NCBI GenBank assembly: GCA_964016885.1
Contig: OZ024743.1
Location: 302,870,001-302,934,000, forward strand
Source of the DNA: Eledone cirrhosa
Lineage: Eukaryota
Length of the DNA: 64,000 nt
Direction of reading: 5' to 3'
The notes beneath the pieces are model-generated. The model saw only the letters and a program-made list of their open reading frames with translations. It was not told the origin of the DNA and did not search any database. The translations under genes and the position numbers were made by a program. How positions within the stretch are numbered: position 1 is the first letter of the stretch; the number at the start of each line of letters is the position of its first letter. Below, in pieces: positions 23,113 to 51,062 of the stretch.

Positions 23113-23843
23113 ATAACAAGTAAGTCAATAGAATCATTTGATAAAATATATACAGTATTTCTTCTCACAATCAGCATAATCAACCACATAAAAAATCAAT
23201 TAAACGAGGCTATAAGTTTAAATTTTACCTATGAAGAAACAATAGATAAATGAATGATAGCTATTTTATTCGCGATCCACAGCCACAAAATATTTACCTA
23301 GTATTTCTAATAGCCAGTAGAAATTGACTAGACATATAGTTAACCATACACAATTAGGTACAAAATCAAAGTTAGAAGAAAAATGTCCATAAACGTACCA
23401 AAATAATGTTTCTACCCCCGGAGATTTCATTCGCTTTTTGGAAATATCCGATCATGGATAAATAAACGAGTTTCGAAATCATCAGGAAACAAACTCAATT
23501 GGACAAAGATTTTTCTTAAATGATCCCCGCCAGAATCAAATTCATAATTGCTAAGAATTGTCACCTGGCCAGTGGTCAAGTCAGAAAGCTTGTGATTGGT
23601 GCCTGACGGCGAGTAGGCTGGTTGCTAGTAAGCGCAGCCGAATACTGCCTAAAGTTTTACCAAACCCTACGGGAGTATATAAAACATAAAGATTTACAAA
23701 TACATAAACTAGACAGAGCCATGTATATATATATATATATATGTGTATATGTTTTTGGAAACCATTCACGATGTGGCTCAATGACGAATTAATTAATTAA
23801 ATAATCATCAATCAGAGCAATATATAAGAAAGTAAGTCCATAT
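23113..23843 (-). mobile_element. Family R3: non-coding ~700-bp HHR unit, one monomer with short terminal redundancy
   Basis: aagtaagtc at 23118 and 23830 (712-bp period); homologous to 41900-43160, 48935-50062 and 50515-51060; both ends abut (TA)n. Confidence 0.85.
23408..23490 (-). ncRNA. Type I hammerhead ribozyme (R3)
   Basis: Revcomp gtttc CTGATGA tttcg-(~38 nt)-cgaat GAAA tctccggggg TA gaaac; perfect 5-bp stem I. Confidence 0.8.
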
Positions 23844-23879
23844 ATATATATATATATATATATATATATATATATATAC

Positions 23880-25240
23880 CATATTCCCAAATCTTCCGTC
23901 ATCGTCGACTCTGTAGCCAGGACGACGATTTAGAAACCCATTCCCTTCGCATGGCTTCCTGCATCATCGAGCGTGTATACCCCCCTACTTTGATCCAAGC
24001 TTCTCTCACCCGCGCCATTGAAGCATACCGCCCCACAGCCCTCTCACCACACCCATGTTACTTTCCCTCTCACCAACCACCCCACTACCCTACCACTCCG
24101 GCGACATATATTCTGTTCCTTCCGTATCCTCTCTTCTGAGCCCGTCACTTCTCGCTTTTTTCAAACCCACACATTAATTCGTTTAAGCGCGCCCACAACC
24201 TCAGTAACCTCCTGGTTCGCAGTTCTTTTTCGTCCTCTCCCACGACTGCACCCGGCTCTCATCCTTGTTCCCTTTCCCATTGCAACATTTGTCCCTTTAT
24301 TTCCACCCTCACCACACTTACAGTCCCTAACGGGTCTTTCCATATCGGCCATTCCTTCACCTGCATATCCACACATATGCCCTCCGATGTTCCCTTTGCG
24401 GGTCTTTATATATCGGACAAACGGGACGCAGTTTGGAGGACCGTTTTGCCGAACATTTGACGGACATCAGACTCGGTTTGGATACTCTGTCGCCCGTCAT
24501 TTTCGTTCTCCTGGTCATTCTTCTTTACATGTTTCAGTCCTGGGTGTCCTTTTACATCATGGATAACAGGCTTCACGCACCAGGACTCAACAAAGTCTGA
24601 TTCACCGCCTTGGGTCCTATTCTCTTCTTGGACTCAACTCACCTCCCCAATTTCTCTAATACACCGTTCATTAACACACCCCTAGATTCCTATCGCTTTC
24701 TCATTATCCTTAGCAGCTTCTCTTACAACTAATACATGCCGATACACACCCTTATATTAACATACCTTTGCTCATAGGTTCGTACGCACATGCACACACA
24801 CTCTTTTACTCACATGTACACACACATTTCTTCGTAACTTCGTAAGAACCTATAACAACACATAGACACGCACACACACTAACACATACACACACATGCT
24901 TACGCACGTGCTCAAGTATAACTCTTTTTACAAAAGGTTTTTTTTTCCATTTCAGGTAGACGCGCTCCATCATCCACTTTTCTAAAAAACAAATCATACA
25001 CAAAACGCCAGCACCATGAATGGACCTGTTATTTTTATGAAAATACATTTTTTCAAATTACATCACCCTCGTCCTCTCAAACTATTTTATTTCTCATTCT
25101 TTCTTTCGATGAAGGACTAGCATCCGAAACGTTAAGACCCTCTTCCTGCTATATCAAGCGTTAACCTAATATATACCTTCCATATACTTACCGATTGTGT
25201 TGTTATTTCTCTTTACCTTTTTACATGCATACATATACTC
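23880..25240 (+). mobile_element. 5'-truncated, decayed PLE-C (GIY-YIG + pLTR)
   Basis: tatatcggacaaacgggacgc = YIGQTGRSLEDRFAEH, VARHFRSPGH; HHR-like tcgatgaaggactagcatccgaaacgtta at ~25106-25134. Confidence 0.8.
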
Positions 25241-25329
25241 CAGTCCTATAAACTGTAGAGTGCTTCTTATCCGATATCTGCATTGCTTTATTGTACTACA
25301 ATAAAACTCACCTCCTATATATATATATA

Positions 25330-25745
25330 TAATAAAATAATAGGTGGCTGGACTGAAGTAAATCTTTGAAAGTTTTATTATACTATGATCATTTCAATGA
25401 CCGGGTTCAGTACGGATCCGGTGACATAATCAGTTATTCAAAATATAACAAAGGAATTTTAACAGATAAAATCCATGGGGCTGAAAATCAGAGACAACAG
25501 GGCGACCGACTATTTAGCAGCTTCTACCTCGGTCGGCCGCCCTTAAATGATCATAGTATAATAAACATTTAAAGGATTTACACCAGTCCAGCCTCCTGTT
25601 ATTTTATTCCGTACTCGCACCACCAAGTACTCAAACGAAGACGAGTGAACTGCATTACGCTGAGTGCTCTCCATAATATTACATCGATGTTGACCATACG
25701 GAATGACCAGTTTTAACCAGTGGTGAACCAACAAACCTAAATAAA
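25330..25745. repeat. Family R4: HHR-bearing repeat with inverted partner (another copy at 62602-62960)
   Basis: 25545-25595 is the revcomp of 25340-25394; HHR on - at 25380-25437 with core CTGATTA. Confidence 0.7.
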
Positions 25746-25785
25746 ATATATATAAATATTCTGAATAATATATATATATATTATA

Positions 25786-48934: not shown

Positions 48935-50062
48935 ATTAATACATTAAAATCAAAAAATCAGAGCATTATATTATAAATCATGTCCTTAGAATCATCAGAT
49001 ATTAAAATATATACTATTTATTCTTCTAATTAGCATAATTAACCATATACAGAATCAAATCTAGCAAGCTTTAAGAATAAATTTTCTTATGGGGAAATCT
49101 CTGACAAACAATCGATCGTAGCCTCTTCGCGGCAGCCCCGTTCCATTATTTATCGAACATTTCGACAGCATGCAGACTCCGACTAAATATACCATCAACC
49201 ACACACAATTAGTAGTAAAATTAAACTTAGAAAAAATGCGCACATACCGTAATTATATCTCTACCATGGTTTCTTCCTTATTTAGGACATCCAAATAATA
49301 TGAATTTCCAGAGTTAGGTTTCATCAGGAGATAAACTCAAAATCAAACATTTAGTTTTTCAATCCGATCCGGCCAAATTTAGATTCAAAAATGGCTAAAA
49401 ATCGCTATCTAGCTGTGTTCCAGCCAGAGAGAAAGAGTGTGATTGGGTGCTTACGGTGGGTAGCCTTGCTGCTAGAAAGCGCAGCCATATATCGCCAAAT
49501 ATAATCTCTCCCAATTGGTTGAGATTAAATTTGGCGATATATGGCTGCGCTTTCTAGCAGCAAGCCTACCCGCCGTAAGCAACCAATCACACTCTTTCTC
49601 TCTGGCTGGAACACAGCTAGATAGCGATTTTTAGCCATTTATGAATCTAAATTTGGCTGGATCGGATTGAAAAACTAAATGTCTGATTTTGAGTTTATCT
49701 CCTGATGAAACCTAACTCTGGAAATTCATATTATTTGGATGTCCTAAATAAGGAAGAAACCATGGTAGAGATATAATTACGGTATGTGCGCATTTCTTCT
49801 AAGTTTAATTTTACTACTAATTGTGTGTGGTTGATGGTATATTTAGTCGGAGTCTGCATGCTGTCGAAATGTTCGATAAGCAATGGAACGGGGCTGCCGC
49901 GAAGAGGCTACGATCGATTGTTTGTCAGAGATTTCCCCATAAGAAAATTTATTCTTAAAGCTTGCTAGATTTGATTTTGTATATGGTTAATTATGCTAAT
50001 TAGAAGAAGAAATAGTATATATTTTAATATCTGATGATTCTAAAGACATGATTTATAATATA
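48935..50062. mobile_element. Diverged R3 subfamily arranged as a ~1.1-kb head-to-head palindrome
   Basis: 48968-49505 = revcomp of 49525-50062 with few mismatches; centre ~49515. Confidence 0.9.
49696..49773 (+). ncRNA. Type I hammerhead ribozyme (mirror copy at 49256-49333 on -)
   Basis: tatctc CTGATGA aacct-(~37 nt)-aggaa GAAA ccatgg TA gagata; 6-bp stem I, palindromic stem III. Confidence 0.78.
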
Positions 50063-50147
50063 TATATATATATATATATATATATATATATATATATATA
50101 TATATATATATATATATATATATATATATATATATATATATATATAT

Positions 50148-50286
50148 ACTGGAATTGAATAATTAAAACCGTAGCGGTATGTCACATATCAATTCATATA
50201 TATTGTCTGATGAAAATGTTGAGTGCTTCTAATCTATTGTAGTATTGTATTCGTTGAGTAGTCAACGAACCATACTAATCTGTGGT
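50148..50286 (+). repeat. Internally deleted pLTR fragment related to PLE-E
   Basis: tactggaattgaa...tctgatga | gtgcttctaatctattgt...gaaccatactaatctgtggt aligns to 30363-30623 with the middle missing. Confidence 0.65.
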
Positions 50287-50514
50287 GGGTAACCACTTTA
50301 CTTCCCTCCGAAGAAGAGATATTATCTCGAAAATTACGGATATTTAAATAAATTTAAGGTGAAAGACTAATTGTCAACAATATCTCTTGCATTTACATTT
50401 ATATTCATTGTTTTGGCTTTACAAATGCAAACGTGTATACCTCATTACACATTGCTTCAAATGAACTATAACATCCTCCTATATGTATATATATATATAT
50501 ATATATATATATAT

Positions 50515-51062
50515 AGGTTGAGTAAAACTTTAGGCAGTATTCGACTGCACTTTCCCTCAACCAGCCTACTCGCCGACAGGCACCAATCACAATCTTTCTG
50601 GCTTGACCACTGGCCACGTGATGATTCTTAGTCATTTTGAATTCATTTTTGGCGGGGAACATGGTAGAAGAAACTTAGTCCAATCTGGGGTATCTCCTGA
50701 TGAGTTCCGAGCCTCGTGGATTCATCCAAGACCGGATATATCTAAAAAGTGGAACGAAACCACCGGTTGGTAGAGACGATGAGAATTTTGGTAATATGTA
50801 TGTACATTTTTTCTTTTAACTTCAAATTTGTACCTAATTCCGTGTAGTTAACTATTTGTCTAGTCAATTTCTACAGGTTAGAAGAAATACTAGGTAAATG
50901 TCATATGGTTGTACATCGCGGAAAGGAATCTGTATCATTTGTCTATCATTTCTTCATAAGAGCATTTTAAACTTATAGCCTCGTTTAAATGATTCTTTGT
51001 GTGGTTAATTTATACTGATTGGGAGAGGAAATATTGTATATATATTATCTAAGGATTCTTTG
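50515..51062 (+). mobile_element. Third R3 subfamily copy
   Basis: Colinear with 42478-43020; flanked by (TA)n. Confidence 0.82.
50693..50776 (+). ncRNA. Type I hammerhead ribozyme, fully canonical core and stems
   Basis: tctc CTGATGA gttcc-(~42 nt)-ggaac GAAA cca ccggt tgg TA gaga. Confidence 0.88.

Follow-up and report, generated by a model that had tools for sequence, protein, structure and literature searches.

How can a repeat with no protein of its own spread through a genome, and does the hammerhead ribozyme (HHR) that it carries act on the RNA from which new copies are made? This question is raised by a 64,000-nt stretch of the Eledone cirrhosa genome (OZ024743.1, 302,870,001-302,934,000; hereafter the window, to which all coordinates without a prefix refer), where a non-coding unit with a type I HHR lies among Penelope-like elements (PLEs). 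Our analyses suggested that the unit belongs to a family of non-LTR (long terminal repeat) retrozymes and is probably copied in trans by a TA-targeting PLE protein with reverse transcriptase (RT) and GIY-YIG domains, its RNA being predicted to be cut once per unit and often re-joined to a circle.

The HHR repeat family in the window

The original prediction placed one non-coding unit at four places, and all four indeed hold members of a single family. The first is a subfamily A copy of 1.03 units at 23116-23842 (minus strand), with a 9-nt terminal repeat at a spacing of 712 and (TA)n on either side; its type I HHR, from core to cut site, occupies 23413-23485 (minus strand), with U-U at 10.1/11.1 and a predicted cut after 23413. 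The second, at 41914-43167, is a subfamily A insertion with two arms. Its direct arm (42264-43167, plus strand, 1.29 units) ends at the second, or "tail", 3' site beside (TA)n and carries a type I HHR with an extended helix II at 42660-42732 (plus strand, predicted cut after 42732), and its inverted arm (41914-42264, minus strand, 0.5 unit) is 95% identical to the direct arm and lacks the HHR. The third, at 48874-50062, is an inverted pair from subfamily C, comprising an inverted arm of 0.97 unit (48874-49527, minus strand, HHR 49327-49262) and a direct arm of 0.83 unit (49507-50062, plus strand, HHR 49702-49767), the latter with A-A at the base of helix II and a short palindromic helix III. 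The fourth is a subfamily B copy of 0.80 unit at 50515-51073 (plus strand) with (TA)n on either side, whose type I HHR at 50697-50772 (plus strand) has the canonical G10.1-C11.1 pair and a long helix III; the cut predicted after GUA at 50772 had been positioned correctly. Three of the four loci are flanked by (TA)n on both sides and the remaining one on one side. Identity is 86% between the A copies, 77-79% between A and B and 66-68% between A and C.

Five HHR cores of the family were located in the window, consistent with the predicted one type I HHR per unit. The head-to-tail arrangement, seamless at a period of 700, was found in the direct arm at 42264-43167, and the other three loci contain no real tandem; two HHRs in tandem were seen at none of the four. 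An AT-rich segment at 48016-48202 (minus strand) also matched the family profile weakly (E 4.6e-9), perhaps through its composition.

Copy number, unit length and array structure

The family is abundant in the 3.0-Gb genome. An 18-nt motif of subfamily A had 546 exact matches (control 0), the general HHR pattern 2,595 (control 2) and a motif close to the 3' end 5,411 (control 0), and as exact-match counts these figures are lower bounds. Far more subfamilies exist than the three first proposed. The predicted period of 700-712 does not extend to all copies, as subfamily C has a period of 668-675 and 19 natural units excised from tandem loci measured 621-705 nt, with pairwise identities of 64-97% in an alignment that lacks B and C units owing to a pattern miss. 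Over all copies measured, the unit spans 621-712 nt.

Copies are dispersed and lodged in TA microsatellites, the longest of them reaching 2.88 units. A single array of 44 units (about 29 kb, C1:92.987-93.016 Mb) was found, with a period of 656-667 and an intact HHR pattern in 38 units. It has standard PLE-type ends and yet contains internal multi-unit block duplications, seen among 20 aligned units as pairs of identical units at lags 1, 4 and 7, and therefore it grew after insertion. These later duplications also rule the array out as proof of 44 rounds of rolling copying. Adjacent array units differ by about 4.5%, compared with 97-99% identity in the tandem overlaps of dispersed copies from related subfamilies. 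Two near-identical insertion pairs (L019/L020 and L095/L097; sampled loci carry the prefix L), lying 0.49 Mb and 36 kb apart, are local segmental duplications or assembly duplicates.

The hammerhead fold

Rfam hammerhead models gave no match in the window, in the B copy or in four loci, so that identification of the HHR rests on the core motif and on covariation. The stem I and stem II pairs quoted in the original prediction are present and covary. In 31 copies from different subfamilies, 93% of the cells in the named helices are paired, compared with 31-51% in slid controls, and double-sided changes numbered 23 as against 9.3 in shuffles (0/500 shuffles). The pattern by which 27 of the 31 HHRs had been chosen fixes the core and helix III, whose invariance is therefore partly built in and carries less weight; a free test of selection comes from helices I and II only.

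Under constrained folding, most copies have a helix I of 3-6 bp, often extended beyond an internal loop, and a helix III that has 4-6 bp or, with a palindromic loop, 3 bp. Helix II had been taken for a simple stem; it comprises 3-6 bp, followed by an internal loop with roughly 5-7 nt on each side and then a hairpin at the distal end. At its first position the pair is U-U in the two window copies of subfamily A and A-A in the folded C copy. The HHR is of the canonical metazoan type with an extended helix II, unlike the minimal type of PLE pseudo-LTRs (pLTRs). This extension is undescribed in the literature that we found; the supplements of PMC7229834 and 10.64898/2026.07.22.740005 may hold similar HHRs or families.

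Insertion ends and probable mobilization by a Penelope-like element

In a 60-locus sample (4 duplicate loci dropped), 75 of 93 3' ends of segments lay at unit positions 72-77 or 190-207, both TA-like, and the 5' ends were scattered; the predicted "different permutation points" are thus true of the 5' ends, the 3' ends being fixed. In a larger set, 346 arms that measured 150 nt or more and had standard 3' ends were divided into 225 at the first site and 121 at the second, and a TA run directly followed the 3' end in 278 of them. Many insertions consist of two arms head to head with the standard 3' end outermost on each, and the PLEs of the window display a matching two-end pattern at their own two ends. 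Partial tandems, 5' truncation, inverted arms, an optional tail and a microsatellite target are thus all present in the family, and such an insertion structure has been described for PLEs (10.1101/2021.04.23.441226). In Anolis, the two ends correspond to internal RT start sites, and both strands are extended (PMC11167929). The PLE end signature together with these start sites strongly points to mobilization in trans by a PLE protein, and by this analogy the HHR repeat family has very probably been moved by a PLE.

Copies within one insertion resemble each other closely at 70 subfamily-diagnostic sites. Tandem copies agreed at 842 of 937 diagnostic cells (48 pairs; 0.90, compared with 0.52 for other loci) and inverted arms at 601 of 662 (30 pairs; 0.91 compared with 0.54), showing that the copies of one insertion derive from one template type. 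Such agreement is compatible with repeated reading of a circle and also with the transcript of a young homogeneous tandem. Among 138 arms picked regardless of the HHR, 33 were longer than one unit and 6 carried two HHRs.

Three further features of the copies were considered. In 6 of the 38 tandem pairs, from different sub-subfamilies, the 3'-terminal copy has G in place of C at position 10 of unit A (window 42273 / 42973); the reverse was never seen, and the change may be a position-dependent RT error. The sole 5'/3' difference between tandem copies that recurred strongly, at unit position 618/619, proved to be an alignment artefact, and the idea of an antisense splice donor at the 3' end was dropped, as it is not kept in subfamily C.

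Copy ends at the predicted cut

If the HHR cuts the template RNA, some copies should stop at the predicted cut. Arms at the edge of a locus, or whose 3' end is not standard, were left out of this analysis. Of the 138 arms, 91 reach position +12, and 10 of these stop within -3..+12 of the cut compared with 2.59 expected from the flanking rate (P=3.6e-4); the other 81 read through. By type, 4 of 18 arms with a long helix III stop in this interval (0.52 expected) and 6 of 73 with a short one (2.04 expected). Ten arms fetched later yielded two stops, at +1 and +7, compared with about 0.3 expected (P ~0.04); in this set L374 was dropped because it is the same place as L253, and L382, which continues upstream after an internal deletion, was scored as read-through. 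Pooled with a largely separate sample (3 compared with 1.04), the figures are 5 compared with 1.34 (P ~0.012), from data that mostly postdate the idea. Exact starts at +1 occur in four independent copies (L267, L270, L068 and L376). These 5' ends are suggestive of a minority of templates that were cut, linear RNAs, and judged from the sequence there is a good chance that the HHR cleaves to some extent in vivo. A supposed pile-up of start sites near -140 (9/120 in one bin, 1-8 in others) was not convincing.

Several observations weigh against cleavage, or against a circle as its product. The interval at the cut was defined after truncated copies starting there had been noticed, and a TA-rich 16-nt interval at -329 has an equally high stop rate (5/40). 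No excess was seen at a second crossing of the cut (2 compared with 2.3; 22 arms) or among partner arms (1 compared with 0.8; 14 arms), most arms cross the cut site with the HHR intact, and an RT that pauses at the HHR fold might leave ends resembling those of a cut. In 11 of 31 copies the 10.1-11.1 pair departs from the standard, and the HHR fold lies above the free-energy minimum in 30 of 31, by 1.9-12.3 kcal/mol, being the minimum only in L159. Circular folds are about 60% paired, with z from -1.7 to -5.2 (12 crude shuffles each). A homogeneous tandem source transcript would likewise yield copies of the same type. Elsewhere, Anolis Poseidon could do without HHR cleavage in vitro, and none of its reported reads ended at the cut (PMC11167929), and eight of nine Xenopus retrozyme dimers are reported not to cleave (10.64898/2026.07.22.740005).

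A model of propagation and its alternatives

On balance, we still favor a trans-mobilized retrozyme whose RNA is cut and often circularized. Loci with two tandem HHRs, or arrays, would be transcribed, and the HHR would cut after GUA and free a cut-to-cut monomer, as the 5' ends indirectly support. Most monomers would then be ligated into circles, a minority being left linear. By analogy with Anolis Poseidon and from the observed ends, the PLE protein would nick (TA)n and prime at internal sites that lie some 300 or 370-440 nt downstream of the cut, at one or both sides of the break, the latter giving rise to inverted arms. Synthesis would halt at random, at the cut (about 1 in 10) or after passing through it, for up to 2.9 units as seen in the copies. 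Read-through copies would regenerate two-HHR sources, and some insertions would later expand locally by multi-unit duplication, as shown for the one array.

Because priming would take place at least about 300 nt downstream of the cut and most copies nevertheless pass through an intact HHR, the template should be either an uncut multimer or a re-joined circle. The former is the basis of the strongest alternative, in which the same family is mobilized in trans by the same PLE from a linear, mostly uncut multimer, the HHR cuts only occasionally and trims 5' ends, and length is kept up by array expansion or by template jumps of the RT, so that no circle is needed. The read-through of 81 of 91 arms, the presence of the 44-unit array and the many subfamilies in which helix III is a 2-bp palindrome or the base of helix II is mismatched all agree with such a template, as do the finding in Anolis that the main PLE substrate is unprocessed RNA (PMC11167929) and the weak cleavage reported for Xenopus retrozyme dimers (10.64898/2026.07.22.740005). 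However, with array units about 4.5% apart, the array as it stands was not the template of the far more uniform dispersed tandems. With two HHRs in so few arms, a linear-only cycle should also shorten in every generation, and yet many old subfamilies keep seamless tandems; some step must therefore restore length. Cutting at the upstream HHR further predicts stops at the second crossing, where the lack of excess has low power. We therefore consider the linear template unlikely, though it deserves more weight than any other alternative. A circle restores the unit length simply, as proposed in PMC4209133 and PMC7229834, and is modestly favored on this ground; we lean slightly toward the circle, or a jump of the RT across the cut, as the main source of copies longer than one unit.

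The transcript might start within the unit itself. A motif cluster 120-230 nt upstream of the cut (about 42500-42615 in the window) resembles CCAAT, CRE/E-box, YY1 and E2F sites, present in 30, 37, 60 and 63 of 70 non-independent reference units, respectively, and may act as an internal promoter. YY1-like motifs likewise occur, in the opposite orientation, in the pLTRs of the two PLEs of the window (PLE1 and PLE2).

A broader view is offered more tentatively, namely that the insertions form a countable fossil record whose 5' ends reveal both fates of the RNA, cut linear monomers as well as re-joined circles under a rolling RT, of an RNA borrowed by PLE enzymes to which it has no detectable sequence kinship, with an HHR architecture undescribed so far and missed by Rfam.

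Coding capacity and relation to PLE sequences

The units could also be the 5'-truncated ends (pLTRs) of an unsampled autonomous PLE, given their PLE-like ends and target and the great abundance of PLEs in this genome, for which a first look gave 29,107 and 10,597 candidates; about ten PLE families were sampled, with no specific query for Naiad-type elements. In a set of 136 loci retrieved together with some 6 kb of sequence upstream, of which 60 were obtained via the A motif, 36 via the HHR pattern and 40 via the 3' motif alone, no unit had a PLE open reading frame (ORF) attached. Some PLE protein match was present at 42 of the 136, as expected in a PLE-rich genome, and a same-strand match within 2 kb upstream at only 5, in all of which a TA run separates it from the unit. 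What lies upstream of a unit is the preceding unit or target sequence, and where arms exceed one unit, as in the 44-unit array, the preceding unit abuts seamlessly without an ORF. Most copies are accordingly not pLTRs on an autonomous PLE ORF, the outcome that would have refuted the original prediction. The HHR is also of the canonical retrozyme type rather than the minimal pLTR type of PMC4209133. The pLTR explanation is thus largely refuted for the bulk of copies and very improbable as a whole, and an ancestral origin of the unit from a pLTR is possible. No conserved ORF was found in 21 natural units either, in which the longest stop-to-stop frame is 44-131 codons and lengths are not kept. 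With its PLE insertion hallmarks, the family is what had been predicted, an ORF-less, HHR-bearing, retrozyme-like element.

Satellite DNA spread at the DNA level by extrachromosomal circles and unequal exchange, with the HHR as a passenger, would explain the multi-unit duplications in the 44-unit array but is the least credible alternative, given the fixed 3' ends and 5' truncation with a polarity tied to the HHR sense strand, the inverted arms primed from both sides, the (TA)n targeting, the compensatory changes in RNA helices, the 5' ends at the ribozyme cut and the standard PLE-type ends of the array itself.

Which PLE supplies the protein is a separate matter. The family profile found no kin among 7 other repeat families (best E=2) or 60 PLE loci, and pairwise alignments with shuffles returned low-complexity matches only, which weighs against the favored model; a rare partner with a related end may exist beyond the roughly ten PLE families sampled. 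The prediction that the neighboring PLE mobilizes the units is upheld as regards PLE-type machinery and is not supported as regards the neighbors as specific mobilizers, because their pLTRs have no homology to the unit and their HHRs are of the minimal type. PLE1 and PLE2 are candidates, nothing more. Close joints between units and PLEs occur at L148 (PLE2), at L097 (PLE1, across a 25-nt partly TA-like gap) and at L169 and L072 (a third, Neptune-type family), in a locus set from which 12 duplicates had been dropped. They were ruled out as evidence of partnership since three PLE families are involved and PLE1 joins PLE2 as well (L267). L164, taken for a chimera, is actually a separate insertion in the same TA tract.

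Neighboring and other elements

PLE1 (54806-59308, plus strand) is decayed and encodes an RT with a C-terminal GIY-YIG domain. Its pLTRs, at 54806-55171 and 58943-59308, each have their own minimal HHR (54925 and 59062). PLE2 (7001-11281, minus strand) is likewise decayed, is related to PLE1, has an inverted arm and carries a minimal HHR at 7192 (minus strand). Both were typed as Neptune/Nematis by the CX4CX2C linker criterion (10.1101/2021.04.23.441226), and they are given here as context, not assigned as partners. In L267:3613-6409 the two stand head to head at their 5' truncation points, which shows that the two sides of a single break can make use of RNAs from different PLEs.

A young and very abundant Neptune-type PLE, represented by L192 and its relatives L191-L220 on many contigs, has a TA target and a minimal HHR in its 3' region. 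All 150 scored matches were 95-100% identical, many of them with an intact 775-aa frame, and this element is a candidate mobilizer. Pieces of about 240 nt from its 3' end, all beginning at almost the same base, recur at L068:4008-4247, L072:5634-5883, L169:3856-4134 and L253:2617-2992 and are likely a short ORF-less pLTR derivative.

Three more repeat families in the window contain HHR-like cores in tandem or inverted pieces and have no homology to the profile of the HHR repeat family. The first lies at 28018-28905 (minus strand), 29814-30622 and 34752-35758, with cores at 28116 (minus strand), 30423 and 35552; the second at 40296-40991 and 43711-44358, with cores at 40470 (minus strand), 40845 and 44326 (minus strand); and the third at 25328-25742 and 62602-62957, with a core at 62847 (minus strand). 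They are probably additional non-autonomous PLE or retrozyme families. The window further holds a decayed LINE-like element at 14350-18000 (minus strand), with a weak endonuclease match and copies that recur at other loci, and a near-perfect inverted repeat between TA tracts at 12680-13177 (187-nt arms, 100% identity), resembling another two-arm insertion. A tRNA search of the window found none.

Relation to known systems and significance

Metazoan non-LTR retrozymes have units of 170-400 nt (Cervera and de la Pena, 2020; PMC7229834). Like them, the Eledone family is ORF-less, has one canonical type I HHR per unit arranged head to tail, is low in GC and coexists with PLEs, and two or more consecutive HHR units, a trait of retrozymes, occur in the two-HHR arms, the 2.88-unit copy and the 44-unit array. 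A U-U helix II base (axolotl HHR_Amex2) and a short palindromic helix III are already on record in that work. By contrast, the unit is larger, helix II is extended, and the copies are mostly dispersed, 5'-truncated partial tandems and inverted arms in (TA)n instead of arrays; circles of the present family are a prediction from genome sequence. Plant-type LTR retrozyme features, namely a type III HHR and two LTRs around an internal region, were not found, the topology being type I and the units abutting. Unit size can no longer be counted as novel, since 621-712 nt, though outside the older range, falls within the 51-972 bp spanned by non-LTR retrozyme consensus sequences (with a mean of 650 for ray-finned fish) in a recent preprint (Li, Clavereau and Pollet, 2026; 10.64898/2026.07.22.740005). 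The families in that preprint similarly have dispersed monomers, multimers at few sites and a proposed PLE dependence. There, families are tied to pLTRs by homology, with 24 of 57 Xenopus families matching Repbase transposable elements, nearly all PLEs, whereas the Eledone unit lacks pLTR homology in the PLE families sampled. Its 35 genomes include no mollusc, and insertion ends and cut-site stops are not analyzed in the part available.

Among PLEs, Poseidon of Anolis (Frangieh et al., 2024; PMC11167929) shares the AT-rich target, the extension of both strands and two internal RT starts downstream of the HHR that set an optional tail. It differs in being autonomous and in its tail of 30-40 nt, compared with about 70-125 nt here, and its reported reads bear no trace of the cut, whereas 5' ends of the Eledone family gather there. 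As described by Craig et al. (2021; 10.1101/2021.04.23.441226), non-autonomous PLEs of Chlamys such as MRC1 and TA-targeting Naiad/Neptune PLEs mostly have no HHR and as a rule have 3' sequence in common with a partner; the Eledone family, by contrast, carries a conserved canonical HHR, and no homology to a partner was detected for it. In minimal PLE HHRs (Cervera and de la Pena, 2014; PMC4209133), as in those of PLE1 and PLE2, a helix II of 6-8 bp is preceded by an unpaired base and there is little helix III, unlike in the canonical HHR with extended helix II described here. According to the proposal of the same authors, PLE tandems arise when the HHR cuts, the RNA is ligated and reverse transcription runs for more than one unit, the route that we favor for this family.

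The retrozyme class, its proposed PLE dependence and the unit size are thus already known. New within the literature searched are this family, for which a Repbase or Dfam entry may already exist, its extended HHR, the PLE ends on a retrozyme without detectable pLTR kin and the trace at the cut site. Similar families may be under-counted elsewhere because an HHR with an extended helix II escapes Rfam models. As far as the sources go, two questions stand open in the literature: what moves animal retrozymes, and whether HHR cleavage and RNA circles matter for PLE-type retrotransposition, as proposed in 2014 and 2020 and found dispensable in vitro in 2024. The Eledone family offers a genome-only test, in which the 5' ends of all copies are compared with the cut site and with helix III strength. 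If true, the stops at the predicted cut would be the first in vivo evidence that we have found for HHR cleavage acting on the template of PLE-driven retrotransposition.

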